32,000 nt of DNA, taken from Candidatus Methanophagaceae archaeon (lineage in GTDB: Archaea; Halobacteriota; Syntropharchaeia; Alkanophagales; Methanospirareceae). The stretch's first letter is position 1, and each line of letters starts with the position of its first letter. Below the pieces are notes generated by a model. That model was not told the DNA's origin. It saw nothing but the letters and a program-made list of their open reading frames with translations, and did no database searches. Below are positions 2,675-32,000 of this stretch, in pieces. The position numbers were made by a program, and so were the translations under genes. The stretch is taken from the NCBI GenBank assembly GCA_003194425.1, contig PQXB01000001.1:400444-432443 (forward strand). Direction: 5' to 3'.

Positions 2675-3826
2675 TTAGTAAGGGTGCATAACGCTCGTCC
2701 GCTTGAACTGCTCCCCGCTGAACAGCACCAAATACTCGGAGATTCCGACAGCGTCAGAGAGCCGTTTCGCAGTCGCTTCCACTGACGCTCGGTCGTAGCC
2801 GTGAATTACAGTGAAGAGGTTGTGCTCCCACTTTCCCGGCACTGTGGCTCGCTCGTAGCAGTGCGTGATTTCTGTAAAACCCGAGAGAAGAGTTCCAACG
2901 CTCTCTACCCGCTCTGCAGGGACTTTCCACGCCACCACCGCGTTTGCGACAATTCCGACTCTGCGCTGGTTGACTGAGACTCCGAGCCGTTTTACGACGC
3001 CCGTGCTCACCAACTTTTTTAACCGCGCTACCACTTCCTCCTGACTCACCTCTGCCTCTTCTGCAACCTCTGCAAAAGGCTCTTTTACGAGTGGGACGCC
3101 GTCCTGCGTGCTGCGTAGAATTGTCTGGTCTATTTTTTTCTTCTTCTCATTCTTCTCACTGCCCTTGACCACTGGTTTCACCTTCTCCTTTCTCTCCTCT
3201 TCTGCTTTCTTCTCTCTCTGCTCCTCTTCTGCTTTCTTCTCTCTCTGCTCTGCGTCGGTAACTGCGTCGGTAAATCTGAACCGAACGTCGATTTTGAAGA
3301 CGCGAGTTGTGGGCAGGTCGAGAGTGTCAGCGTCTGGGACTCCTGTCCGTCTTTTTATCTCCTCTACCGTTCTTTCCAAGTCCTTCCCGCCGCAAGTCGT
3401 AACCGTGAACCAGAGGTTGTAGTCGTGTTCGCGGCGGTAGTTGTGAGTCACGCACAGGTATTCGTTAACGACGCCTACGACCTCGTCCAACCGCTCCGCA
3501 GGCACTCGCATCGCCAGCAAAGTCGAGGAACAGGCACCCACTTTCTTGGCGTCAAGAATCGTGCGCAGTTTTCGAATCACACCCGCCGCCGAAAGCCGCT
3601 GCACACTGGAGAGCACCTCGTCCTCCCCGAGCCCCAGCCGCTCTCCTACTACCGCCCAGGGTCGCTTCTCCACCGGGAAGTTGTCCTGCAGCAGTTGCAA
3701 CAGTTCCTTGTCCCTCTTGTCCAGTCTGACCGGCACAGGCTCTTTCGCACTCAATTTTTGTCTCCTCTTTCTTCTCTTTCTCCTTCTTCTCCTTCTTCTC
3801 TTCCTAAAGGAATGTAAGGGCACCAC
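2675..3826 (-). CDS. ahbAB: Siroheme decarboxylase, fused AhbA-AhbB (NirD/NirL-like)
   Basis: Two tandem Lrp/AsnC-like halves (LDKRDKELLQLLQDNFPVEKRPW...; IDQTILRSTQDGVPLVKEPF...). Each ends in the H.Y.R...NL[WF] signature (HNYRREHDYNLWFTV; HCYERATVPGKWEHNLFTV). The halves are joined by a repeat-encoded EQREKKAEE x2 linker. The start is uncertain: ATG 3826 gives a poly-Arg leader overlapping ahbC, while TTG 3754 gives a TTGA start/stop overlap. Confidence 0.8.
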   Translation of the reverse strand: MVPLHSFRKRRRRRRRKRRKRRQKLSAKEPVPVRLDKRDKELLQLLQDNFPVEKRPWAVVGERLGLGEDEVLSSVQRLSAAGVIRKLRTILDAKKVGACSSTLLAMRVPAERLDEVVGVVNEYLCVTHNYRREHDYNLWFTVTTCGGKDLERTVEEIKRRTGVPDADTLDLPTTRVFKIDVRFRFTDAVTDAEQREKKAEEEQREKKAEEERKEKVKPVVKGSEKNEKKKKIDQTILRSTQDGVPLVKEPFAEVAEEAEVSQEEVVARLKKLVSTGVVKRLGVSVNQRRVGIVANAVVAWKVPAERVESVGTLLSGFTEITHCYERATVPGKWEHNLFTVIHGYDRASVEATAKRLSDAVGISEYLVLFSGEQFKRTSVMHPY

Positions 3827-4890
3827 GGCTCTTCGGCTAAAAAGTCACCACTCAACTCCGCAGGCTCTTGCAGACCGCCGCAGACGTCCACGAAACTCGT
3901 CAAGCCGTAAGCCCGCGCGCGGCACCCACCGCAGACCGCCCGGTACTCGCAGACGCCACACTTGCCTTTTAAGTTGTCAAAGTCCCGCAGCGACTTCAGC
4001 ACGGGCGAGTTAAACCAAATCTCTTTGAAGTGCGTCTCGCGAACGCTACCCACTTTCAGCGGCAGGTAGGGGCAGGGCGTGACTTCGCCTGTCGGGTAAA
4101 TTCGGCAGTAAGTAAGCCCTGCGAGGCACCCGCGGGTCCACCTCCGCTTTTTGAGGTCAAGCCCCTTCTGCTGCAACGCGATTCGCATAAATTGCGGTGC
4201 ACAGACAGGACGGAGAGCGAGTTTAGTCTTCCCCGCAGCAACCTTCTGAAGCACCTCTGCGAGCATTTGCTCGTACTTCTCCGCCGAAATGTCCTTCATT
4301 TTCACGCCCCTGCCCGTTGGCACGAGGAAGAAGAGGTGAAAGGCGGTCGCACCCACTCGCTCCGCCAACTTCATTATTTCGTAGATTTCGCCGTAGTTCT
4401 GCTGCGTTACCGTTGTGTTAACCTGAACCGCGATTCCGTTTCGTCTGCAGGCTGCAATTCCCTCTAACGCTCGTTTCCAGGCTCCTTTAACGCCGCGGAA
4501 CGCGTCGTGCCGCTCGGGGCTGCTCGAGTCGAGGCTGACTGCAACTGCACTCACGCCGCACGATTTCAGGTCCCTCGCAACCGAGTCGGAAATGAGCGTC
4601 CCGTTGGTGCCGAGCCCCACGGTCAAGCCCTTCTCTTTCGCCGCGTAGTGGGCGAGTTCGAAGAGATCGTCGCGGAGCAGCGGCTCGCCACCGCTTAAAA
4701 TCAGAATTGGCTTGCTCACTTCTGCGATTTGGTCAATTAGCTCCTTTCCCTCCGCCGTGCTTAACTCCCCCGCTCCTGCACTTTCGCTCGCGTCAATGTA
4801 GCAGTGCGGACAGCGCAAATTACAACTAAAGGTCAAGTTCCAAGAAATTAGGCGTGGCAGAAAGTTTCCGTTCTCGTGCATTTTCGTCAA
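3751..4890 (-). CDS. ahbC: Radical SAM/SPASM haem-pathway enzyme, AhbC (NirJ1)-like
   Basis: PRLISWNLTFSCNLRCPHCY (CxxxCxxC). SPASM cluster CRIYPTGEVTPCPYL...KCGVCEYRAVCGGCRARAY. Clustered with ahbAB and ahbD. Confidence 0.6.
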   Translation of the reverse strand: MTKMHENGNFLPRLISWNLTFSCNLRCPHCYIDASESAGAGELSTAEGKELIDQIAEVSKPILILSGGEPLLRDDLFELAHYAAKEKGLTVGLGTNGTLISDSVARDLKSCGVSAVAVSLDSSSPERHDAFRGVKGAWKRALEGIAACRRNGIAVQVNTTVTQQNYGEIYEIMKLAERVGATAFHLFFLVPTGRGVKMKDISAEKYEQMLAEVLQKVAAGKTKLALRPVCAPQFMRIALQQKGLDLKKRRWTRGCLAGLTYCRIYPTGEVTPCPYLPLKVGSVRETHFKEIWFNSPVLKSLRDFDNLKGKCGVCEYRAVCGGCRARAYGLTSFVDVCGGLQEPAELSGDFLAEEPWCPYIPLGREEGEEGEREERGDKN

Positions 4891-4930
4891 TATCTTGTGT
4901 TCTTATTTAAGTTGAGATTTCTTAAAATAA

Positions 4931-5078
4931 AAGTAGAAAGAAGAATAGAAGAGGGAGAGAGAGAAGGAGAAAGAAGAATAGAAGAGGGAGAGAGAGAAGG
5001 AAAGAGGGAGAGAAAGAGAAGGAAAGAGGAAGAGAGAGAAGGAAAGAGAAGAAGAGGAGAGAAAGAGAAGGAAGAAAA
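4931..5078 (+). repeat. ~148-nt near-pure polypurine tract containing a 33-nt tandem duplication
   Basis: gaaagaagaatagaagagggagagagagaagga occurs at 4936-4968 and again at 4969-5001, followed by degenerate (GAR)n up to the ATG at 5079. Only three T and no C on the + strand. It lies in the divergent ahbC / ORF-5079 intergenic region. Confidence 0.9.
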
Positions 5079-14558: not shown

Positions 14559-16361
14559 TCACTTCAGTTTGCAGCGGGCAGCCAAGAAACGAATGTAGAA
14601 GGTTAGGGCGAGGAGCAGAAGAACTGCAACGAGTGGGAACGCGACTGCCGGGAACGCAGGCACGGGTGCTATTCTCAGACTGCTGTCAATCGGATCGCCC
14701 TCGTCCCAGCGCCCGTTTTGGTTCGTGTCAACAACGATGTTGTAGTCGCCAGCGCGAAGCGGGGACGACCAAATGCTTACAGCCGGCCAAATTCCGCCCC
14801 AAAGTCCGCCCGAAGAGTTGGTGGCCGCCAGTTCCGCGGTTCCGTTCTCAGAAACATCTGTGAGCAGGTCTCCTGCCTTCCACTCTTCTTTGGGCTTGTG
14901 AGAGACGACAAAGATTTTTACGGTCGTGCTGGCAGGCAGGTTCCCGGCGTAACAGTAGACAGATTCGCTGGTCTTGAAAATGTTCTTCTCGGTTCCTGCG
15001 TCGTCTGAAGAATTGACGAAGGTTGGTTTTCCGAGCAGTAGGTAGACTTTCCCCGCCCAGTTTCCCCTCTCGGAATTAAAAGGAGCGGCGATTAAAAAGT
15101 CGTCAGCGTAGTCGCCGTTGCAGTCGCCTGCACCTGAAACTGACCAGCCAGAACAGTTGCCTTTACCGTCGCCAAGTAAGAAAGCGTCTGCGTCTGTTGC
15201 GAGCGGTGTGTTCTGTCTCCAGCCCGTGCTCTTGCCCAAAATTAAGTACACCTGCCCTGCTAAACCTCCAGCGTCAGAATTAAAAGGAGCACCGATCAAG
15301 AAGTCGTCGAAGCCGTCACTGTTGCAGTCCCCCGCTCCGGAGACCGAGTAACCAGCACCGTCGTTAGTACTTTCGCCCACGAAAGAGGCGCTGGCATTTG
15401 AAAGGTTTTCGTCCCACCAGCCCGTGTTGTTACCAAGAATCAGGTACGCTTTTCCTACTTTACCTCCACCCTTAGGAGCACCGATCAAGAAGTCGTCGAA
15501 GCCGTCACTGTTGCAGTCGCCTGTACCTGAAACAGACCACCCAGCACCGTCGTTAGTACTTTCGCCCACGAAAGAGGCGCTGGCATTTGAAAGGTTTTCG
15601 TCCCACCAGCCCGTGCGGTTACCAAGAATCAGGTACACCTTTCCTTTACTACTGCCGTGACTAGGAGCACCGATCAAGAAGTCGTCGCAGTCGTCGCCGT
15701 CAACATCGCCCGCTCCGGAGACCGAGTAACCAGCCTCGTCGTTAGTACTTTCGCCAAGGAAGGAAGCGTCAGCGGTTGAAAGCGGTGTGTCCTGTCTCCA
15801 GCCCGTTTCCTTTCCCAAAATCAGGTAGACTTTTCCCGCCTTACTACCTTTTTCATTGTTGTAGCAGTCGCCGATCAAGAAGTCGTCGAAGCCGTCACTG
15901 TTGCAGTCCCCCGCTCCGGAGACCGAGTAACCAGCAAGGTCACCCGCGGGTTCACCTACGAAAGAGGCGCTGGCATTTGAAAGGTTCTTCTCCCACCTGC
16001 CTGCGCTGTTACCAAAAATCAGGTACACCTTTCCTTTACCAGGACCACCGTCGCCAGGAGCGCCGATCAAGAAGTCGTCGTAGCCGTCGCCGTTAACATC
16101 TCCCACACCTGAGACGGAGTTACCTGCAACATCGCCTGCTCCCTCTCCCAAGAAGAAGGCGTCTGCAGCGCTTGAAAGGTTTTTGTTAGGCTCCCAGGCA
16201 GAGGCGTTCGAAATTACGAAACCTAACACTAACAAACCCAACACCAAATTAAGCCCTCTCGCTCTTACGCTTCTCTCTTTTGCTTCAGCCCTTACAGACT
16301 TTTTGTCGCCCTTTTCCCGCACTTCCCCTCTTCCCCTACCCCTCTTCCTCTTTTCTCCCAT
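14559..16361 (-). CDS. FG-GAP/integrin-alpha-type beta-propeller surface protein with C-terminal anchor
   Basis: At least six repeats of G[DY]SVSGAGD[VC]N[GS]DG[FY]DDFLIGAP...GKVYLI[LF]G. N-terminal signal-like helix LNLVLGLLVLGFVISNASA. C-terminal Ig-like module, then RIAPVPAFPAVAFPLVAVLLLLALTFYIRF. Confidence 0.85.
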   Translation of the reverse strand: MGEKRKRGRGRGEVREKGDKKSVRAEAKERSVRARGLNLVLGLLVLGFVISNASAWEPNKNLSSAADAFFLGEGAGDVAGNSVSGVGDVNGDGYDDFLIGAPGDGGPGKGKVYLIFGNSAGRWEKNLSNASASFVGEPAGDLAGYSVSGAGDCNSDGFDDFLIGDCYNNEKGSKAGKVYLILGKETGWRQDTPLSTADASFLGESTNDEAGYSVSGAGDVDGDDCDDFLIGAPSHGSSKGKVYLILGNRTGWWDENLSNASASFVGESTNDGAGWSVSGTGDCNSDGFDDFLIGAPKGGGKVGKAYLILGNNTGWWDENLSNASASFVGESTNDGAGYSVSGAGDCNSDGFDDFLIGAPFNSDAGGLAGQVYLILGKSTGWRQNTPLATDADAFLLGDGKGNCSGWSVSGAGDCNGDYADDFLIAAPFNSERGNWAGKVYLLLGKPTFVNSSDDAGTEKNIFKTSESVYCYAGNLPASTTVKIFVVSHKPKEEWKAGDLLTDVSENGTAELAATNSSGGLWGGIWPAVSIWSSPLRAGDYNIVVDTNQNGRWDEGDPIDSSLRIAPVPAFPAVAFPLVAVLLLLALTFYIRFLAARCKLK

Positions 16362-18049: not shown

Positions 18050-18103
18050 ACTTTTATTTACAGGTATAAATAGAGATAAAAGAGAGAAGAGGAGGAAGAG
18101 GAG
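18050..18103 (+). promoter_or_regulatory. Putative ftsZ promoter (TATA-like) and purine-rich leader
   Basis: cttttatttacaggtataaatag with tataaata at 18065-18072, ~32-39 nt upstream of ATG 18104. A ggagg lies at 18091-18095. Confidence 0.4.
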
Positions 18104-19291
18104 ATGGAGAGAATGTTAGGAAATAATGCAGGGATCGTAGAGGGCGAGGGGGATTGTTTCGGGGTGCCGAGCATTTCAATTGTCGGCGTAGGCGGGGCAG
18201 GAAACAATTCAATGGACAGACTGGAGCAGTTAGGCGGGCTGAACAACATAGACAGAATCGCCGTGAACACCGACAAACTGCACCTGGATTCGATAACCTG
18301 CAAGAAGAAAATCTTGATTGGAAAATCGCTTACACACGGATTAGGAGCAGGAGGCTCGCCGGAAATCGGCAGGAAAGCCGCGGAAATCGACAGGCAGGAG
18401 TTGGAGCAGTTGCTGGCGGGCAGGAACTTTGTCTTTCTCACTGCAGGGATGGGTGGAGGAACAGGTACGGGAGCGTCGCCGGTAGTCGCGAGTGTAGCGA
18501 AGGAGGCGGGTGCGATCGTGGTCGCGATGGTCTCTTTCCCGTTTGAAGCCGAGCGGATAAGACGACAAAGGGCAGCAGACGGGATTGAGGAACTCCGAAA
18601 CACCACCGACACGGTCATCGTCTTGGAGAACGACAAACTCCTGAAATACTCGGGCAACCTGCCGGTGAACGACGCCTTCAAGACGATGGATATGCTGATT
18701 ACAAGCACGATTCAGGGCATTGCCGAGACGGTAACAAAACCCTCGCTCGTGAACCTCGACTTTGCAGACCTCAAGGCGGTAATGTCCGAAGGTGGTGTCG
18801 CAGTGATGCTCATCGGCGAGACACGGAAATCAGAGAACAAGCCCGAGGCGGTCGTCTCCGACGCACTCAGCCACCCGCTTTTAGAAGCGGACTACCGCGG
18901 GGCGAAGGGCGCTCTTATTCACATCACCGGCGGGTCTGACCTCACGATGAAGGAGACGACGGACATCGTAGAACTGCTCACCTACGACCTGAACCCCGAC
19001 GCGAATGTAATTTGGGGCGCGCGGATAAACGATGACTACAACGGGCGGGCGCGGGTGACCGCGATAATGACCGGCGTAGAGCCGAAGTGGATTTTCGGCG
19101 GGCGGTACGAAGTCCGAGAAGAGAAAGAGCGAGAGACTACCAATCTATGGAAATTAAATACAAGTAGAGACAGAGGAATCGGCAGAGGAGGTAAAGGTAG
19201 CAAAGGAGGTAAAGGTAGCGGAGGAGGTAGCGGAGGAGGTAGCGGCGACGGAGAGGGAGGAATTAAAAATATTATTTCCTTCATCCACTGA
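18104..19291 (+). CDS. ftsZ: Cell division tubulin homolog FtsZ
   Basis: IVGVGGAGNNSMDRL, GLGAGGSPEIGRKAA, and the tubulin signature GMGGGTGTGASPVVA. Ends in a low-complexity G/K/S-rich C-terminal tail (GGKGSKGGKGSGGGSGGGSGDGEGG). Confidence 0.9.
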   Translation: MERMLGNNAGIVEGEGDCFGVPSISIVGVGGAGNNSMDRLEQLGGLNNIDRIAVNTDKLHLDSITCKKKILIGKSLTHGLGAGGSPEIGRKAAEIDRQELEQLLAGRNFVFLTAGMGGGTGTGASPVVASVAKEAGAIVVAMVSFPFEAERIRRQRAADGIEELRNTTDTVIVLENDKLLKYSGNLPVNDAFKTMDMLITSTIQGIAETVTKPSLVNLDFADLKAVMSEGGVAVMLIGETRKSENKPEAVVSDALSHPLLEADYRGAKGALIHITGGSDLTMKETTDIVELLTYDLNPDANVIWGARINDDYNGRARVTAIMTGVEPKWIFGGRYEVREEKERETTNLWKLNTSRDRGIGRGGKGSKGGKGSGGGSGGGSGDGEGGIKNIISFIH

Positions 19292-19350
19292 AAAACAAAG
19301 AGAGAAAAAAGTATAAACTTATTTAAATAAGTACAAGAATTATTGTCAGA

Positions 19351-20268
19351 ATGGCAAAGACAAACAAGGCAGCGGGTTTGTTGTATCGGGGCGAATTTAC
19401 CTACTACGTGGGTTCAGCGATTTTTTCGGCGGGCATCGCACTCTTGGCACTCGGCACTGCGTTTATCGTCTACTACAAAATACACTACGGCTCCGAGCCA
19501 GAGCAGATTCTGCTTTCTACCCTTTTTATGGGCGTCGGCACTACGCTGGTTTTGGTGGGCGTAAATTTGATGATGCGGCAGACACGGTTCGGGTATTTTA
19601 TCGTGGCTGCGAGCGCTTCTCTCTCCCTGCTTGCTCTCCTCATTTTTAAACTCAACTACCCGCAGGACTGGTACTACCCGCTAATAAGTTACGGGCTCAC
19701 TCTTTACATCTCGGGGTTTTTGGTGCTGCTCGGGAACGCGTTTGCGAATGTGATTCTGTGGCTGATTGAGAGCAGGCCTGCGGAAATGCTGAGTAGTGTC
19801 TTGGGCAGGCGGCGGGAGGAGAAGAAATACAGCAACGAAGAAATAGAGCGGGACATTGAAGAAGCGACGAGGAAGAGCGTTGAACTCTCCGCCACGAAAC
19901 TGCGGTTTAAGGACTTGGGGGCTGTGCAGAATGTGCGACTCGGAAAGGCGTTCCGCGAGTCGCGGGGCAAGACAGTTAGGTTCAAAGACAGCATAAAAGA
20001 AACCGAGAGCTTGGGAAAAATAAAGAGGCCCGTGGAGCGAGTGCGGTCTGGCTCGGCGGAGGTTGAGAATATTTCAAAGAGCCTGGAAGCGGTCTTGAAA
20101 GAAGGAGCAGTTCAGAAGGGACGGGGTAGAGGCAGCGGCAGGGGAGGTCTGGGTCAGAGAGGACTGGGTCAGGGAGGACGCTTTGAGGAGTTGAAGGATT
20201 TTATTAGTGGCGTTGTAGAGAAGTTTTGCTCTGTTCTTGGGCTGAAGAGGAAGGGCAAAAACATTTAA
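19351..20268 (+). CDS. Four-TM membrane protein with a long charged/disordered cytoplasmic tail
   Basis: Four hydrophobic helices (YVGSAIFSAGIALLALGTAFIVYY; LLSTLFMGVGTTLVLVGVNLMM; YFIVAASASLSLLALLIF; LISYGLTLYISGFLVLLGNAFANVILWLI). Then ~165 aa of K/E/R-rich sequence ending GRGRGSGRGGLGQRGLGQGGRFEELKDFISGVVEKF. A 14-nt perfect palindrome cttatttaaataag (19318-19331) sits ~20 nt upstream of the ATG. Confidence 0.6.
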   Translation: MAKTNKAAGLLYRGEFTYYVGSAIFSAGIALLALGTAFIVYYKIHYGSEPEQILLSTLFMGVGTTLVLVGVNLMMRQTRFGYFIVAASASLSLLALLIFKLNYPQDWYYPLISYGLTLYISGFLVLLGNAFANVILWLIESRPAEMLSSVLGRRREEKKYSNEEIERDIEEATRKSVELSATKLRFKDLGAVQNVRLGKAFRESRGKTVRFKDSIKETESLGKIKRPVERVRSGSAEVENISKSLEAVLKEGAVQKGRGRGSGRGGLGQRGLGQGGRFEELKDFISGVVEKFCSVLGLKRKGKNI

Positions 20269-20325
20269 TTTAATCAGAGAAAATAGAGTAAAGCAAAAAA
20301 AGGACGAAAAGAAGGAGAGAAAAAA

Positions 20326-21402
20326 ATGGCAAAAGGATTGGATGTTGGGACGATGAACATTATTTGTTCAGAGAGAGAAGACGAGGATGTGGTTTTTACG
20401 CAGCAGCGGAACGCGTTTCTGGAACTCGAGTCTGGGGACTTGACGAAGACGATGTTGGACAGTGCGAACGTGCTTTACATTGAGAAGGACGGTCAGATTT
20501 ATGTGCTGGGCGAGGACGCGTTTAGGTTCGCGACGATCTTCGGAAAAGGGGCACGACGGCCGATGAAACGCGGGATAATTAGCCCTGAAGAGAAGGACGC
20601 GATCCCGATGATTCAACTAATCGTGGAGCGGGTTCTGGGCGAGCCGAATTATCGCAATGAGGTGCTCTGCATTTCTTCGCCCGCCAATCCGATTGACTTG
20701 GACATAAACACGCTGTACCACAAGAAAATGATGGAGGCGCTGGCAGGGCGAATGCACTACGAGACGAGCGTGATTGACGAGGGCTTGGCTGTGGTTTATT
20801 CAGAACTCGGAAGCTCCAGCTTCACGGGTCTCGGAATAAGCATCGGCGCGGGGCTGACGAATGTGACGCTTGCCTATTTAGCCACGCCTGTGATGTCGTT
20901 CAGCATCGGCAGGGGCGGGGATTGGATTGACGAGCAGGTCTCGAGCACGACAGGACTCTCGAAGGAGCACGTCTGCGCGACGAAGGAAAGCGGGTTCAAG
21001 ATGGGCTTGGGCTCGGAGGTTGAGTTCGGCAGTCCCGAGGGGGCGCTCTCGATTTACTACGACGCTTTGATGACTTACCTGATAAAGAACTTGAACAGGA
21101 GGCTTGCGGAGATTACGCCGCCGAAGGTGGAGTTCCCGGTTGCACTCGCGGGTGGAAGTGCGACGCCAAACGGGTTCTTGAGAATGTTCGAGAAGAAGTT
21201 GCGAGACGCGAAACTTCAGATTGACATCTCAAATGTGAAGCGTGCCAAAGACCCCCTCTACTCGGTCGCACGGGGCTGCCTCATCGCCGCGAGGACGCAG
21301 GAAGGCGAAGATGTGAACAGTGGCGGTGGCGGTAGCGGGAGTGGTAGCGGGAGTGGTAGTGGTAGTGGTAGCGTGAAGACCACCGAGGAGAAAAAGGCAT
21401 GA
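20326..21402 (+). CDS. Actin-fold (ASKHA) ATPase, MreB/ParM/FtsA-like
   Basis: Phosphate-1 GLDVGTMNI. RRPMKRGIIS (compare MreB RPM[KR]DGVI). Phosphate-2 GLGISIGAGLTNV. SIGRGGDWIDE. Adenosine motif VALAGGSA. DPLYSVARGCLIAA near the C-terminus, then a (GS)n tail. Confidence 0.7.
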   Translation: MAKGLDVGTMNIICSEREDEDVVFTQQRNAFLELESGDLTKTMLDSANVLYIEKDGQIYVLGEDAFRFATIFGKGARRPMKRGIISPEEKDAIPMIQLIVERVLGEPNYRNEVLCISSPANPIDLDINTLYHKKMMEALAGRMHYETSVIDEGLAVVYSELGSSSFTGLGISIGAGLTNVTLAYLATPVMSFSIGRGGDWIDEQVSSTTGLSKEHVCATKESGFKMGLGSEVEFGSPEGALSIYYDALMTYLIKNLNRRLAEITPPKVEFPVALAGGSATPNGFLRMFEKKLRDAKLQIDISNVKRAKDPLYSVARGCLIAARTQEGEDVNSGGGGSGSGSGSGSGSGSVKTTEEKKA

Positions 21403-21532
21403 TAAGAAGGAAATAAAATGGAGACGGTAGGTAATTTTACCGGAAAGACTTGGGTCTAAGTTGCGGGCGAAAGCGGAAGCGACGGGCTACTTGTAAACTT
21501 TAAGAAAGTTTGATCAAAATGCTTCGGAAGAG

Positions 21533-21628
21533 TTGAGCGAGAAGTACCTTGCGGAAGGGAAGGAGCTGTTGAGTAAAGCGGACTTGGAGCAGGCGTCGGA
21601 GAAGTTCTGGGGCGCTGCGGCTTTAAAA
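21533..21628 (+). pseudogene. N-terminal fragment of a PaREP1/HEPN-like gene
   Basis: TTG-initiated SEKYLAEGKELLSKADLEQASEKFWGAAALKNL matches, from memory, the helix pair with the SEK.WGAAA motif of archaeal PaREP1-type proteins. The similarity stops at the A/T hairpin (21632-21650). The last 43 nt (21586-21628) recur at 23867-23909, as part of the 74-nt repeat. Confidence 0.35.
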
Positions 21629-21659
21629 AACCTTTCTTTAAAAAAGAAAGCTTTACCAA
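21586..21659 (+). repeat. 74-nt repeat, copy 1 (gene fragment + 8-bp/3-nt-loop hairpin)
   Basis: ggagcaggcgtcggagaagttctggggcgctgcggctttaaaaaacctttctttaaaaaagaaagctttaccaa is identical to 23867-23940. Hairpin: ctttcttt / aaa / aaagaaag at 21632-21650. Confidence 0.95.
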
Positions 21660-21785
21660 AGAAAAAGGAAGTGAATGTAGAAATGAAAAGAAGTAGAGGG
21701 GAAATAGTTGGGTCCGCCTTACTGGCGGCGTTTGCAGTGGTGGTGGTTAGTGCCGGAGTACAGCGTCTGCGTGCCGCTAACGGCA

Positions 21786-22073
21786 ATGCCTCTCTCGGTG
21801 CCAGCGGGGTACAAGGAGACGCTGGAGTACAGTTTCGCAGTGCCGGAATTGGGTGCGAAATGGTTCAGCAACGCGTTCCTCGTGCAGTTGGCGGAGACAG
21901 AGGCGGGCGGGGGAGAAGGAGCAGGTGGAGGAGGAGAGGTCTTGGATGCGGACGCTGCGTGCTGGATTTACCGTCCTGCGGGCAGGGGAGTAGAAGCGGC
22001 GCAGACGGCAGTAGGAGAAGCGGAAGTAGAAATCGCAGACGAGATAAGGAGAGCAGTAGAAGGGGTAAAGTAG
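21786..22073 (+). CDS. Small acidic protein, EYSFAVP family, copy A (95 aa from ATG 21786)
   Basis: MPLSVPAGYKETLEYSFAVPELGAKWFSNAFLVQLAETEAGGGEGAGGGGEVLDADAACWIYRPAG...EVEIADEIRRAVEGVK. The frame is supported by synonymous differences versus copy B. The stop TAG is followed by a hairpin and T-run. Confidence 0.6.
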   Translation: MPLSVPAGYKETLEYSFAVPELGAKWFSNAFLVQLAETEAGGGEGAGGGGEVLDADAACWIYRPAGRGVEAAQTAVGEAEVEIADEIRRAVEGVK

Positions 22074-22102
22074 AGTCTCTAAAAAGAGGCTCTCTTTTTT
22101 TT
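22073..22102 (+). terminator. Hairpin + T8 terminator-like element after copy A
   Basis: gagtctc (22073-22079), loop taaaaa, gaggctc (22086-22092; 7 bp with one G.U), then tctttttttt. Confidence 0.5.
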
Positions 22103-22119
22103 AGGAGAGGGAGAGAAGA

Positions 22120-22359
22120 ATGGCAATCGTAGAAGTGGATGAGGAATACAAAATACCATTAAAGCAGGTCAGCGTTAGCTTTAACATAAAACCTGCGGAT
22201 CGTTTTTTGGTACGAGTAGAGACGAGAGAGAAGATAGTTTTGGAGAAGATAAAGCAGAAAGATTCGCTTATAGAGATTATTGAAAATCCAGGACACACGG
22301 ATCGAAGAGGGGCAGCCCTCGATTTAAAAGAGCTTGAGGAAGAGCTGTGGGGGAGATGA
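22120..22359 (+). CDS. vapB: AbrB/SpoVT(MazE)-type antitoxin, VapB-like
   Basis: 79 aa. MAIVEVDEEYKIPLKQVSVSFNIKPADRFLVRVETREKIVLEKI fits the swapped-hairpin AbrB pattern. The stop overlaps the downstream PIN gene start (ATGA at 22356-22359). Confidence 0.7.
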   Translation: MAIVEVDEEYKIPLKQVSVSFNIKPADRFLVRVETREKIVLEKIKQKDSLIEIIENPGHTDRRGAALDLKELEEELWGR

Positions 22360-22772
22360 AAGTTTTTGTAGATTCCAATATCTTTATATTCGCGAATATC
22401 GCGGAATATCCAGAGCAGGAGACTGCAAAGGAGAAATTGAAGTGGCTGATAAATAAATCCTGCACGATTTTAGTCAATCCGATTATCGTTTCCGAAGTGC
22501 ATTACAAACTTTCCAGACTATTAAGTGCGGAAGAGGCGTACGAACGAACATTGAAAATAATTTCTTCGGGACACGTTGAGTACGTGCCGTTGGGGAAAGG
22601 GACGGTGCTAAAAGCGATTGAGCTCAGTCGTTCAAGGAAAATCAGGATAAACGATGCTCTGATCGCTCAACACGCGTTGGACTTGAATGCAGAGGGTTTG
22701 GTAACCGATAACACGAAAGATTTCGTTAAAGTGGAAGGATTGAAGGTTATCAAATTGAGAGAGGACGAATAA
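22356..22772 (+). CDS. vapC: PIN-domain toxin VapC
   Basis: MKVFVDSNIFIF (Asp-1), IIVSEVHY (Glu), INDALIAQHAL (Asp), LVTDNTKDF (Asp). ATG 22356 is preferred over track GTG 22347 because of the ATGA coupling. Confidence 0.85.
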   Translation: MKVFVDSNIFIFANIAEYPEQETAKEKLKWLINKSCTILVNPIIVSEVHYKLSRLLSAEEAYERTLKIISSGHVEYVPLGKGTVLKAIELSRSRKIRINDALIAQHALDLNAEGLVTDNTKDFVKVEGLKVIKLREDE

Positions 22773-22799
22773 GCTCGTAAATGGGGAACAGAAGACCGG

Positions 22800-23123
22800 T
22801 TGGCGTTGCAGTGGTGGTGGTTAGTGCCGGAGTACAGCTTTGCGGTGCCGGATTTGGGTGCGAAGTGGTTCAGCAACGCGTTCCTCGTGCAGTTGGCGGA
22901 GACAGAGGCGGGCGGGGGAGAAGGAGCAGGTGGAGGAGAGGTCTTGGATGCGGACGCTGCGTGCTGGATTTACCGTCCTGCGGGCAGGGAAGCGGGAGCG
23001 GTGCCAGTAGCAGTAGGAGAAGTGGAAGTAGAAATCGCAGACGAGATAAAAGAGGCGATTGAAAAGTGGAGTAGGGCTTCTGAAAAGAGGCTCTCTTCTT
23101 TTTTATTTTTTCCTAAAGCATAA
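22800..23123 (+). CDS. Small acidic protein, EYSFAVP family, copy B (start uncertain: TTG 22800 or GTG 22824)
   Basis: ...VPEYSFAVPDLGAKWFSNAFLVQLAETEAGGGEGAGGGEVLDADAACWIYRPAG...EVEIADEIKEAIEKW. Near-identical at DNA level to copy A apart from a 69-nt and a 3-nt in-frame indel. The stop differs, so the ORF reads through a degenerate terminator copy. Confidence 0.55.
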   Translation: MALQWWWLVPEYSFAVPDLGAKWFSNAFLVQLAETEAGGGEGAGGGEVLDADAACWIYRPAGREAGAVPVAVGEVEVEIADEIKEAIEKWSRASEKRLSSFLFFPKA

Positions 23124-23487
23124 CACTTTCAGAGAAACTTTTAAAATGAGGGTCTCCTGTTAGAACCTTCACGCCTTTAAATCGTGCAGAGGCAAGCACG
23201 AACGCATCTGCGAGACCAAAGTCTTGCATCGTCTTCTTCGCCTCGGCGTGAATTTTCGCAGCCTCTACTGCAATCTGCTCGTCAATCGGAATGACTGCAC
23301 ACCGCTTCACGATGAAGTTCCTCCTCTCTTCTGCCCTTCCGTCGGTTCTTAAAGATTTGGAGAATATTTCTGCGATGATGATTGGAGAAGTGTAAAGTTG
23401 CACCTCGGTTTCAACGACCTCTTTCACCCTCTTCCCCTCCTCCGTGCCCATAAAATATTCTATCCAGGCGAACGAATCAAGCAGCAT
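23113..23487 (-). CDS. vapC: PIN-domain toxin VapC (second module)
   Basis: MLLDSFAWIEYFMGT (Asp-4), IIIAEIFSK (Glu), LADAFVLASA (Asp), LTGDPHFKSF (Asp). Confidence 0.85.
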   Translation of the reverse strand: MLLDSFAWIEYFMGTEEGKRVKEVVETEVQLYTSPIIIAEIFSKSLRTDGRAEERRNFIVKRCAVIPIDEQIAVEAAKIHAEAKKTMQDFGLADAFVLASARFKGVKVLTGDPHFKSFSESVML

Positions 23488-23497
23488 TTACTTTATT

Positions 23498-23710
23498 CTA
23501 TCCTATCCTATCCTCACGGTCTCTCAAGTCTGACTTCTCTGTCCTCGCCATCGTCCCAAAAAGACTTTTCTTCGCTTTAACTTTGAAAAGAGCATCATAT
23601 AAGATTTCGTTTATCTTTTCTGACACCCCTTCTTCGCCCGACTCTTTTTTTAACGCCAGATATATTTCTTCCCTCAATTTAATCGCCTTTCGAACATACA
23701 TCGTTTTCAC
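23498..23710 (-). CDS. vapB: Small antitoxin (RHH/CopG-like VapB) paired with the second PIN toxin
   Basis: 70 aa, ending 10 nt upstream of the PIN gene. KAIKLREEIYLALKKESGEEGVSEKINEILYDAL fits strand-helix-helix antitoxins that accompany archaeal VapC. Confidence 0.6.
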   Translation of the reverse strand: MKTMYVRKAIKLREEIYLALKKESGEEGVSEKINEILYDALFKVKAKKSLFGTMARTEKSDLRDREDRIG

Positions 23711-23740: not shown

Positions 23741-23974
23741 TTGGCGATTCTTAAAAATTACGACGAGCCTATCGAGTACAGTTTCGCAGTGCCGGATTTG
23801 GGTGCGACGTGGTTCAGCAACGCGTTCTTCGTGCAGTTGGTGGATACAGAGGAAGGAGCGGGAGGAGGAGCAGGCGTCGGAGAAGTTCTGGGGCGCTGCG
23901 GCTTTAAAAAACCTTTCTTTAAAAAAGAAAGCTTTACCAACAACTTTTTTACCTTCGGTAAAAACCTTGACTAA
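23741..23974 (+). pseudogene. EYSFAVP family copy C, truncated and fused to the 74-nt repeat
   Basis: Only 23774-23866 (EYSFAVPDLGATWFSNAFFVQLVDTEEGAGGG) is homologous to copies A and B. At the shared ggagcagg microhomology it switches into repeat copy 2 (23867-23940). The N-terminal 11 codons overlap the vapB2 promoter region. Confidence 0.6.
23867..23940 (+). repeat. 74-nt repeat, copy 2
   Basis: Identical to 21586-21659. Followed by a 78-nt copy-specific insert (23941-24018) that carries a TATA-like ctttatatag. Confidence 0.95.
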
Positions 23975-24043
23975 ACTTTACTGAAGAAAAATAATACTTT
24001 ATATAGAGTTATAGAGTGAAAGAAAAAGGAAGTAAAAGTAGAA

Positions 24044-24193
24044 ATGAAAAGAAGTAGAGGGGAAATATTTGGGTCCGCCCTTGTGGCGGCGTTTGTAGTG
24101 GTGGTAGCGGTGTTTCCGACTGCGGTCTCGGTCTCGGTGACCGCAGCAGAGAGAGGAGCAGAGGGGAGAGGGAGAGAAGAAAGGCAATCGTAG
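24044..24193 (+). CDS. Hydrophobic micro-ORF (49 aa), intact twin of the leader at 21683
   Basis: MKRSRGEIFGSALVAAFVVVVAVFPTAVSVSVTAAERGAEGRGREERQS. TATA-like tttatata lies ~40 nt upstream. 24019-24108 is roughly 90% identical to 21658-21747 by eye (about seven mismatches in ~90 nt). It is below the 60-aa track cutoff. Confidence 0.4.
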   Translation: MKRSRGEIFGSALVAAFVVVVAVFPTAVSVSVTAAERGAEGRGREERQS

Positions 24194-24235
24194 AAGTGGA
24201 TGAGGAATACCATTTTGTAGATTCTGAAGTCTTTT
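24165..24235 (+). pseudogene. Decayed vapB'-vapC' remnant
   Basis: 24165-24210 matches 22104-22149 (the vapB1 5' end) with ATG mutated to AAG. After a 7-nt slip deletion it jumps to ttttgtagattc, which matches the vapC1 5' end (22363-22374), and then diverges. Confidence 0.7.
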
Positions 24236-28071: not shown

Positions 28072-28079
28072 TTAATCAG

Positions 28080-28153
28080 CGAGCCGGGAGGGATTTGAAC
28101 CCCCGACGGGCAGGTTAAGAGCCTGCTGCTCTGCCTTTCTGAGCTACCGGCCC
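28080..28153 (-). tRNA. tRNA-Lys (anticodon CUU), 74 nt, no encoded CCA, no intron
   Basis: Reverse complement folds by hand: GGGCCGG/TA/GCTC-AGAAAGGCA-GAGC/A/GCAGG-CTCTTAA-CCTGC/CCGTC/GGGGG-TTCAAAT-CCCTC/CCGGCTC/G. All stems pair, with two G.U pairs. Confidence 0.9.
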
Positions 28154-30774: not shown

Positions 30775-32000
30775 TCACCTCACAAACTTAACAACTCCCC
30801 CCCCAGGAGCATAAAGCACCCCCTCCCGCTTCATAACTTCAATCATCTCCTCCGCCTTCTCGCGCTCCGTCCCTTCCTCCTCCGCAGCGTCAAGCACCGC
30901 CTCAATCGGCACTTCTTCCCCGTACTCCTTCACCAACTCCTTTATTATTTCGCGAATTGACCTTGCACGGTCTCGGCGTGTCTTCGTCGTCCCGACATTC
31001 ACCCAGTCAGCGTCTAACTTACCTGTCTCGGGGTCGACAAAAACCCGCTTCAAGCAGTAGGTGACCAAATTAATCACGCGTTCGGCGTCCTCAGCCGTTA
31101 TTTTGTCGCTCAGCCGTGCCCTTGCCCTTGCCTCGCCCAGCCGAATCAGTGCCTCTAACTGCCGTGCCGTTACAGGGACAGGAGCGTCCTCGTCCTCGTA
31201 GCTCGGCTGCCGAAGCCCGATGTAAAAGTCCAGAAACTTCTGCTTCGCCTCCTCACTCATCACCGGAAAGACATTCCTCTTGCTCCACGCCACATATTTC
31301 CTTAACAACCCCCCAGCTATTTCAGGCTTCATTCTTTGCATCGCCACCTTGAAATGCTCCTCTCTCTCGGCTCTCTCAGCTCTCTCGGCTCTCTCAGCTC
31401 TCTCACTTCTTTCACCTCTCTCACCTTTCTCAGCTCTCTCACTTCTTTCACCTCTCTCACCTTTCTCAGCTCTCTCACTTCTTTCACCTCTCTCACCTTT
31501 CTCAGCTCTCTCAGCTCTTTCACCTCTTTCACCTCTCTCGCTGCCCGCTTCTCTTCTGCTCCCGCTGCTCCTGTCACCTGGCGTTGCGAGCAGTTCGCCA
31601 ACGTAGTGCGTCTCAATTATGTGCTTCGCAGTCCTCGTGTCAAGTTCTTCGTTCGGTCGGTCTAGCATCGTAAAAATGAGGTCGAACCGCGACAAAAGTG
31701 TGGGAGGCATATTTATCTGCTCTGAAATTGGGGTGTACCTGTCGAACCGCCCGCCTTTCGGGTTCGCCGCAGCCAGCAACGCACACCGCGAGTTTAACCT
31801 TGCCATCATTCCTGCCTTCGCGATGCTCACTGTTTGCTGCTCGATCGCCTCGTGAAGTGCGTCGCGGTCCCGCTTCTCCATCTTGTCGATTTCGTCGACG
31901 GCAGCAATGCCCTTGTCCGCGAGCACCAGCGCACCAGCCTCCAAAGTCCACCGCCCCTCACCGAACTCGTCTTTGACCGCGGCTGCGGTGAGTCCTGCTG
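30775..32000 (-). CDS. mcm: MCM replicative helicase, partial (N-terminal part lies beyond the right edge)
   Basis: The frame stays open to nt 31998 (...AGLTAAAVKDEFGEGRWTLEAGALVLADKGIAAVDEIDKM). Walker B DEIDKM, arginine-finger SRFDLIF, C-terminal winged-helix-like end. A repeat-encoded insertion lies at 31362-31545. Confidence 0.9.
   Translation of the reverse strand, partial: AGLTAAAVKDEFGEGRWTLEAGALVLADKGIAAVDEIDKMEKRDRDALHEAIEQQTVSIAKAGMMARLNSRCALLAAANPKGGRFDRYTPISEQINMPPTLLSRFDLIFTMLDRPNEELDTRTAKHIIETHYVGELLATPGDRSSGSRREAGSERGERGERAERAEKGERGERSERAEKGERGERSERAEKGERGERSERAERAERAERAEREEHFKVAMQRMKPEIAGGLLRKYVAWSKRNVFPVMSEEAKQKFLDFYIGLRQPSYEDEDAPVPVTARQLEALIRLGEARARARLSDKITAEDAERVINLVTYCLKRVFVDPETGKLDADWVNVGTTKTRRDRARSIREIIKELVKEYGEEVPIEAVLDAAEEEGTEREKAEEMIEVMKREGVLYAPGGGVVKFVR
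31395..31502 (-). repeat. 36-nt in-frame tandem repeat x3 inside mcm (EKGERGERSERA)
   Basis: cagctctctcacttctttcacctctctcacctttct occurs at 31395-31430, 31431-31466 and 31467-31502, flanked by degenerate copies (31362-31545 overall). Confidence 0.9.

Follow-up and report, generated by a model that had tools for sequence, protein, structure and literature searches.

Three vapBC-linked repeats in a Methanophagaceae genome as probable remnants of a secreted surface-protein gene

Introduction

A 32,000-nucleotide stretch of the genome of a Candidatus Methanophagaceae archaeon (GenBank assembly GCA_003194425.1, contig PQXB01000001.1, positions 400,444 to 432,443 of the forward strand; hereafter the window, whose coordinates are used throughout, with features on the plus strand unless stated) contains three direct-repeat copies, A, B and C, of a coding-like sequence. 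Each adjoins a PIN-toxin/antitoxin gene pair of the VapBC type, as an initial annotation of the sequence had noted when it proposed the copies as a new family of small acidic proteins. Comparison with sister strains leads us to a different view: the copies are very probably non-functional 3′ remnants of a large gene encoding a secreted, adhesin-like surface protein, copied along with the vapBC cassette, and do not represent a new small-protein family.

The open reading frames (ORFs) concerned are annotated as hypothetical proteins in public metagenomes, and their coding-like pattern mimics that of a new toxin–antitoxin (TA)-linked family. Identifying them as remnants averts the naming of a false family and the proposal of a false three-component TA system. 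It also shows the locus as a record of how, from strain to strain, a surface-protein gene is turned over and vapBC copy number changes in uncultured methane-oxidising archaea, and draws attention to an unannotated family of C-terminal domains in Methanophagales secreted proteins.

An intact parent gene in a sister strain

The three copies lie where they had been reported and share 85–95% DNA identity. A repeat search groups them as one family (D4; 21821–21933, 22826–22938 and 23770–23882, with 95 and 85% identity to the reference copy), whilst a second family supported by the repeat search and by alignment (D10) pairs 21909–22047 with 22911–23049 at 86% identity. In the reading frame originally assigned, the copies fall within ORFs of 121 (21708–22073), 107 (22800–23123) and 77 amino acids (23741–23974).

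The parent gene is seen intact in the sister contig L085, where genes for FtsZ, CdpA and volactin are followed by an intact 131 amino acid PaREP1 gene (3534–3929), an intact gene encoding a 658 amino acid protein (P0016; 3938–5914), vapB, vapC and copy B. P0016 begins with MKRSRGEIVGSALVAAFVVGVV and has a signal peptide, a highly significant match to DUF2341 (PF10102, E = 2.2e-21) and a C-terminal end reading ...EVEIADEIRRAVEGVK. When aligned to this protein by tblastn, copy A corresponds to residues 548–658 (94.7%), copy B to residues 542–655 (67%) and copy C to residues 568–603 (69%); what had been described as a small acidic protein family is thus the end of a long secreted protein. The frame in which the copies were first read is that of the parent gene, the correct ancestral coding frame. 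More generally, the copies are homologous to the C-terminal ~125–140 residues of full-length Methanophagales secreted proteins. Synteny with the window extends to the contigs encoding such fragments, two of which bear a long gene in place of copy A: L085 and L003, the latter encoding a 464 amino acid DUF2341 protein (P0015; 200–1594) that ends in copy A (its final ~120 residues).

Alignment of the window with L085 by blastn locates the breakpoints. Window positions 18070–21624 correspond to L085 166–3697 (98.9%), after which 220 nt of PaREP1 sequence is swapped for 37 nt (21625–21661). Positions 21662–21747 then correspond to L085 3918–4002, comprising the ribosome-binding region and signal peptide, L085 4003–5578 (1.58 kb) is absent and positions 21732–23199 correspond to L085 5579–7041 (97.6%). 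At the 1.58 kb deletion the two flanks share a 16-nt overlap, an imperfect microhomology. No ORF in the interval 21500–24250 matches the DUF2341 profile, this domain having been deleted from the window.

The region is rich in repeats of 85–100% identity and all of the related sequences come from metagenome assemblies, features that could lead paralogous repeats to be joined into a chimera when a metagenome-assembled genome (MAG) is built. An artefact of this kind is nevertheless highly improbable. The junction of signal peptide and copy A recurs in a contig from an independent Joint Genome Institute (JGI) metagenome sample (L091) with 279 of 280 nt identical, and for this reason we regard the deletion allele as real and not a local misassembly. 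Moreover, five further contigs, assembled in different projects, show copy B with the same flanks, and the microhomology at the junction is imperfect, unlike that expected of k-mer collapse.

The presence of several copies within 2.5 kb could also be accounted for by a mobile element resembling a miniature inverted-repeat transposable element, or by a structured non-coding RNA. The chances of this are vanishingly small: no terminal inverted repeats flank the copies, none has an Rfam match, there are no copies in the window outside the island and the sequence is fully accounted for as a protein-coding C-terminus. Rfam and tRNA (ARAGORN) scans of the window returned a tRNA-Lys (CTT) at 28079–28153 on the minus strand as their sole match.

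The C-terminal module

An AlphaFold model of P0016 was built with 50 homologues. Its overall mean pLDDT (predicted local distance difference test score) is 55.8, with residues ~500–630 predicted to form a beta-sandwich in which 10-residue blocks score 76–93. Ten strands are modelled (506–510, 516–521, 525–527, 531–539, 546–554, 559–562, 568–570, 576–583, 592–602 and 615–626), followed by a helix at 640–655. The best Foldseek matches of the model in the PDB, with E values of about 1e-3 to 1e-2, are to the Ig-like domain of AlkC, the MG domains of alpha-2-macroglobulin and antibody V domains. An Ig-like assignment for the C-terminal domain is suggested by the strand pattern and by the fact that all the top matches are beta-sandwiches, the part of the 658-residue query that Foldseek aligned not being reported.

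An exhaustive phmmer search of 1.84 billion representative proteins with copy A (E ≤ 1e-3) did find relatives, 55 in all, but these are mostly full-length proteins that match at the C-terminus: 42 are at least 250 amino acids long and in 35 of these 42 the match lies no more than 30 residues from the C-terminal end. Their N-terminal parts vary and include DUF2341, DUF2341 with laminin-G, FG-GAP and unknown domains. In every intact relative a signal peptide precedes the complete domain, and even the shortest intact members (P0106, P0131 and P0092, 145–159 amino acids) retain a signal peptide or leader together with the whole domain. A profile made from the three copies matched only 14 of 5.8 billion proteins, all of them near-identical metagenome fragments of this same locus, several being chimeric or frameshifted (P0013 runs into PaREP1 sequence, P0014 into a nonsense frame and P0003 begins in one). 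Given the 14 same-locus fragments and the length of 42 of the 55 phmmer matches, these searches yielded no homologues that stand as independent small ORFs in other genomes.

The original remark that the copies belong to no recognised family holds. Pfam, NCBIfam and PADLOC searches with the three ORFs, their alternative frames and the intact module returned significant matches to PaREP1, PIN and DUF2341 only; the module profile found nothing below E = 0.05 among PDB sequences and the fragment profile found no relative among GTDB representative genomes. On the basis of these comparisons, the module is an unannotated, lineage-restricted C-terminal domain of secreted proteins, of which the window copies are truncated pieces. 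What had been described as a G/E-rich spacer in the copies is a lineage-specific expansion of a single loop, where D-x-S-G-E is all that most members of the family have.

P0015, P0016 and P0091 (464, 658 and 887 amino acids, respectively), which are alleles or paralogues of the DUF2341 surface protein, agree over their first ~150 residues and in the C-terminal module but differ greatly in the middle, and P0091 has the module twice. This pattern suggests that protein bodies are exchanged between strains in the manner of cassettes. It is conceivable, though we hold this only tentatively and think it rather doubtful, that the module (sandwich plus charged amphipathic helix) is an undescribed cell-surface attachment or sorting module whose DNA, together with the TA cassettes, acts as a recombination handle for shuffling surface-protein bodies between strains. 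P0015, P0016, P0091, P0022, P0023 and P0030 combine this one module with differing N-terminal or middle parts, and the module, so far found only in ANME-1/Methanophagales-type metagenome sequences, occupies the position taken by the PGF-CTERM anchor in relatives.

TA genes lie directly beside full-length module genes in four of five contexts (vapBC, RHH-PIN, a VapB-like gene, MNT-HEPN and PaREP1; contigs L085, L086, L087/L088 and L090, neighbours of P0016, P0022, P0019 and P0024). Depending on the background density of TA genes in these genomes, this association may be due to chance.

Copies A, B and C as probable remnants

Copy A (21732–22073; tblastn, 94.7%) comprises the last 111 codons and stop codon of the DUF2341 surface-protein gene (P0016 548–658). 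Upstream of it, 21662–21747 retains the ribosome-binding region and first ~21 codons of the same gene (blastn to L085 3918–4002, 89.5%), including the signal peptide MKRSRGEIVGSALLAAFAVVV with its ATG at 21683. This ATG lies within a repeat (D12) and is followed by the signal-peptide-like MKRSRGEIVGSALLAAFAVVVV. Its frame is 3n+2 and that of copy A is 3n, with the result that translation from the real start would give an arginine-rich nonsense product. The ATG at 21786 previously taken as the start of copy A is arbitrary, lying inside the parent domain: homology to the parent gene begins at 21732 and the native start, at 21683, is in another frame. Neither copy A nor copy B has a start codon of its own that can be reached in frame.

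Copy B (22788–23066; tblastn and alignments) is a second remnant of the module (P0016 542–655) from which 23 residues have been deleted internally. Its homology (TEDRLALQWWW...) begins at 22788, 16 nt past the vapC1 stop codon. The copy lacks an ATG, with only TTG or GTG available as candidate starts, and a 1-nt deletion shifts the frame past the ancestral TAG, allowing the ORF (22800–23123) to run into a terminator. The last ~17 codons are consequently a translated terminator-like hairpin and T-run (23073–23094 plus tail), and length polymorphism in the T-run moves the end of the ORF between strains to give 107 or 111 amino acids.

Copy C (23756–23866; repeats and tblastn) is a 37-codon scrap of the module (P0016 ~568–603) joined at a GGAGCAGG microhomology to a second PaREP1 scrap. 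Common descent of the middle part of A and B with this PaREP1 scrap, around GGAGCAGG, was considered and rejected, the similarity being judged recombination-junction microhomology only.

Set against the model of the parent domain, copy A begins inside strand 5 of 10, copy B lacks the first four strands as well as its 23 internal residues and copy C spans approximately three strands. The predicted beta-sandwich is thus a property of the intact module: modelled alone, copy B has a mean pLDDT of 44, no strands and one low-confidence helix. From the parent model, the copy B model and the alignment, neither A nor B is a complete foldable unit. The TD..Y..GD....I.IANPTE block, which makes up the first ~45 residues of the domain, is missing from all three copies, and no complete domain stands behind an in-frame signal peptide. 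That the frames have stayed open can be attributed to the purine- and G-rich sequence, which has few stop codons in two frames.

Two other readings of the DNA were rejected. The frame that includes the signal peptide (a 199 amino acid ORF, 21533–22132) is arginine-rich nonsense past residue ~27, has no homologues and makes all of the differences between A and B non-synonymous. On the minus strand, no ORF of at least 25 amino acids crosses 21871–22073.

Coding signal and the possibility of an expressed small protein

The case for a translated gene had been built on the differences between copies A and B, and the differences themselves are as described. Five are found in the first 13 shared codons, of which four are synonymous (AGT/AGC, TTC/TTT, GCA/GCG and AAA/AAG) and one (GAA/GAT) exchanges E for D; all five would change an amino acid in the alternative long frame. 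The conclusion of a translated gene under purifying selection does not follow, however, as the synonymous pattern is what would be inherited from full-length paralogues. Indels of 69 and 3 nt also exist as reported, but a third, of 1 nt and lying ~7 codons upstream of the copy A stop codon, had been missed. Nor do lengths divisible by three demonstrate selection on the frame. The 3-nt indel sits in a GGA/GGN trinucleotide run, which slips naturally in units of three, and the sequence lost in the 69-nt indel lay between two GGAGTACAG direct repeats.

Ratios of non-synonymous to synonymous substitution (dN/dS), calculated by the method of Nei and Gojobori, are 0.10–0.29 among the intact genes and 0.50–0.60 for copy B against the intact genes. 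Such values are expected for fragments that inherited the signature of purifying selection and then drifted. Copy B varies between strains at ~6 sites (3–4 synonymous, two non-synonymous) and in a GGN codon indel and T-run length, too few substitutions to be informative.

A number of observations sit less comfortably with decay. Copy B is open (107–111 amino acids) in every strain seen (the window, L002, L003, L004, L085 and L092), gene callers in automated pipelines predict these ORFs as genes, dN/dS for A against B is 0.41 and so below 1, albeit explicable by inheritance from functional paralogues, and the differences in copy B between strains are not obviously biased towards replacements. 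In addition, the long allele in L003 has itself suffered a 1-nt deletion (ggtctcg-tctcgg, 181–203) where the signal peptide meets the mature part, splitting it into ORFs of 30 and 464 amino acids; the locus may be decaying in several strains, or this may be an assembly error in the contig. Going by sequence, copy B may have retained a function. It lies directly 3′ of vapC1, with which it is very likely co-transcribed, and one can imagine that the C-terminal module has been exapted here, with copy B, and perhaps copy A, expressed as a small protein that may modulate the adjacent vapBC or form a third part of it.

We consider such exaptation very unlikely. Copy B is without four of the ten sandwich strands and a further 23 residues of the core, is predicted to be disordered on its own and has no ATG, and its tail is a translated terminator that varies with the T-run. 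Its close homologues include frameshifted and chimeric versions, most short matches are near-copies of the same locus and those stand-alone members that were checked at the sequence level (145–159 amino acids) keep the signal peptide and full domain. PADLOC gives no match. Nothing, in our judgement, supports translation of copy B. Of the roles first suggested for the copies, that of a hitch-hiking cargo comes close to the truth, whilst that of a third TA component finds no support.

Duplication of the fragment together with vapBC

Two VapBC pairs lie among the copies. The first consists of a 79 amino acid vapB1-like antitoxin gene (22120–22359), with a weak AbrB/MazE-type match (PF04014, E = 0.027) below the curated cut-off, and the gene for a 141 amino acid PIN-domain toxin, vapC1 (22347–22772; PF01850, E = 7.6e-16), which it overlaps by 13 nt. 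The second is on the minus strand and comprises vapC2 (23113–23487), which encodes a 124 amino acid PIN-domain toxin (PF01850, E = 6.2e-16; NF047959, E = 1.4e-8) and is convergent with copy B, and a 70 amino acid vapB2-like antitoxin gene (23498–23710) with a weak match to PF02697 (VAPB_antitox, E = 0.012). Both are type II TA pairs of the VapBC kind, with small antitoxin ORFs upstream of, and overlapping or abutting, the PIN toxin ORFs, the antitoxin family matches being weak.

The relationship between fragments and TA genes is clearest in L001 (GCA_029935835.1, 1–2122), which contains two complete tandem fragment–vapB–vapC units with 99% identity, plus a third, partial fragment. The tandem offset is ~1011 nt (1005 nt in a second measurement), corresponding to a unit of ~1.0 kb (1.01 kb), and the spacing from A to B in the window is 1005 nt. 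The tandem units and the equal spacing lead us to regard the fragment and vapBC1 as a single duplication unit whose copy number varies between strains. Each copy adjoins a vapBC pair, then, because the duplicated DNA spans both. The middle fragment of L001 is a chimera with a B-type 5′ part and an A-type 3′ part, and L001 does not have the inverted vapC2–vapB2 pair of the window. Copy C lies beyond this inverted pair.

A terminator-like hairpin and T-run, that of the parent gene, is found by hairpin scan directly 5′ of vapB1 (22072–22102), with a second within the 3′ end of the copy B ORF (23073–23104). This raises the possibility that the fragments matter as non-coding DNA, providing a terminator and possibly promoter or 3′-untranslated elements for the vapBC cassettes. 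In keeping with this, the parental hairpin and T-run have been retained after both A and B, that of B lies between the convergent vapC1 and vapC2, and in the duplicated unit of L001 this hairpin again precedes each vapB. Some 30 nt would suffice for the purpose, however, leaving ~280 nt of coding remnant unexplained, and the consensus used in the terminator scan is based on bacterial patterns that may not suit archaeal signals. We regard a non-coding role as unlikely.

A proposed order of events

Decay of the surface-protein gene could have proceeded as follows. The intact parent encodes a signal peptide, DUF2341, a variable middle part, the C-terminal beta-sandwich of ~125 residues and a short charged helix. 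The strain-variable island lies between the volactin gene and a DRG GTPase gene, with PaREP1, the surface-protein gene, terminator, vapB1 and vapC1 as the ancestral order, still intact in the sister strain. In a first step, unequal crossing-over would have duplicated the ~1.0 kb unit running from inside the C-terminal domain through vapC1, placing copy B right after vapC1. In a second, short imperfect repeats would have driven deletions in the window lineage, with junctions at GCGTT(T)GCAGTGGTGGTGG, GGAGTACAG and GGAGCAGG. These would have removed 1.58 kb of the parent gene, leaving the signal-peptide codons out of frame to copy A, and 23 codons of copy B, and would have fused copy C to a PaREP1 scrap. 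Finally, the fragments would now be transcribed, probably only as untranslated parts of vapBC messages, with copy B retaining the parental terminator.

The DRG GTPase gene beside the island has its best match (72% identity) in a Methanophagales (ANME-1) MAG, with the next best also from Methanophagales. None of the DRG loci fetched (L005–L084) carries the module, from which we take the island to be lineage-specific.

Other features of the island and its surroundings

Upstream of copy A, 21533–21624 holds ~31 codons from the 5′ end of a PaREP1/HEPN-like gene that is otherwise missing. These codons are the first of the 199 amino acid ORF starting at 21533. The fragment matches PaREP1 (PF05942) with E = 2.1e-6, and the Pfam envelope covers profile positions 6–63 of 115, yet true homology to the intact L085 gene stops after ~31 codons, at 21624; the window does not contain the full ~115-residue domain. 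The 37 nt that follow (21625–21661), in place of 220 nt of PaREP1 3′ sequence, are an AT-rich filler with a small hairpin and form part of repeat D13. A second copy of D13 (23867–23940), consisting of PaREP1 scrap and filler, is 100% identical to 21586–21659 and follows copy C.

Further scraps lie downstream. Positions 24019–24181 repeat the start of the DUF2341 gene, with its ribosome-binding region and ~45 codons (the signal peptide) from an ATG at 24044 (blastn to L085 3918–4072, 90%); repeat D12 relates 21658–21744 to 24019–24105 at 92%. This signal-peptide scrap is now a dead-end ORF of 49 amino acids, joined to a scrap of the vapB1 5′ end (24165–24210; repeat D19, 98% to 22104–22149) in which the ATG start codon has become AAG.

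By synteny with L085, the region upstream of the island (18104–21402) encodes FtsZ (395 amino acids), a CdpA_N protein (305) and a volactin-type actin homologue (358), the last with a Gly-Ser repeat near its C-terminus (~21320–21380). Within a 600 amino acid minus-strand ORF (14559–16361), tandem repeats of ~189–204 nt (15073–16166; 4–6 copies, 63–87% to the reference copy) probably encode the repeated domains of a further surface protein. Repeats of 156–177 nt occur at the start of the window within a 382 amino acid ORF, and there is also a purine-rich 33-nt repeat and an array of 9-nt period (CTCTCTCAG-type). The locations of the repeat arrays, listed jointly, are 31326–31575, 33–680 and 4909–5078.

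Comparison with known systems

Reasoning by analogy with PilY-type proteins, Makarova et al. (2016, PMC4858521) proposed that archaeal DUF2341 surface proteins are pilus-associated adhesins, a proposal that would fit a fast-evolving, strain-variable surface gene. The parents of copy A in the sister strains (P0016 and P0015) resemble these proteins in having a signal peptide and matching DUF2341 significantly, and more distant relatives end in beta-sandwich domains of the CARDB, DUF11 or TRAP_beta type. The window differs in keeping the C-terminal module only. Proteins of this lineage end in a charged amphipathic helix, whereas the distant P0025, P0026 and P0033 end in a PGF-CTERM anchor, and no type IV pilus genes lie nearby. 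The intact module, modelled as a ten-strand sandwich, resembles the Ig-like and macroglobulin (CARDB-like) sandwiches, but the Foldseek matches are weak, there is no significant Pfam or PDB sequence match and the module constitutes an unannotated family of 55 clusters, restricted to this lineage.

With type II VapBC and three-component TA systems the locus shares the two PIN-toxin/antitoxin pairs that flank the copies, but here the fragments come from a neighbouring gene and not from a TA component. The closest parallel is with pseudogene fragments generated by tandem duplication and microhomology-mediated deletion. Truncated domains, an out-of-frame start, a frameshift at the stop codon, variable copy number and repeats at the junctions are all found, and there is no essential difference between such fragments and copies A to C.

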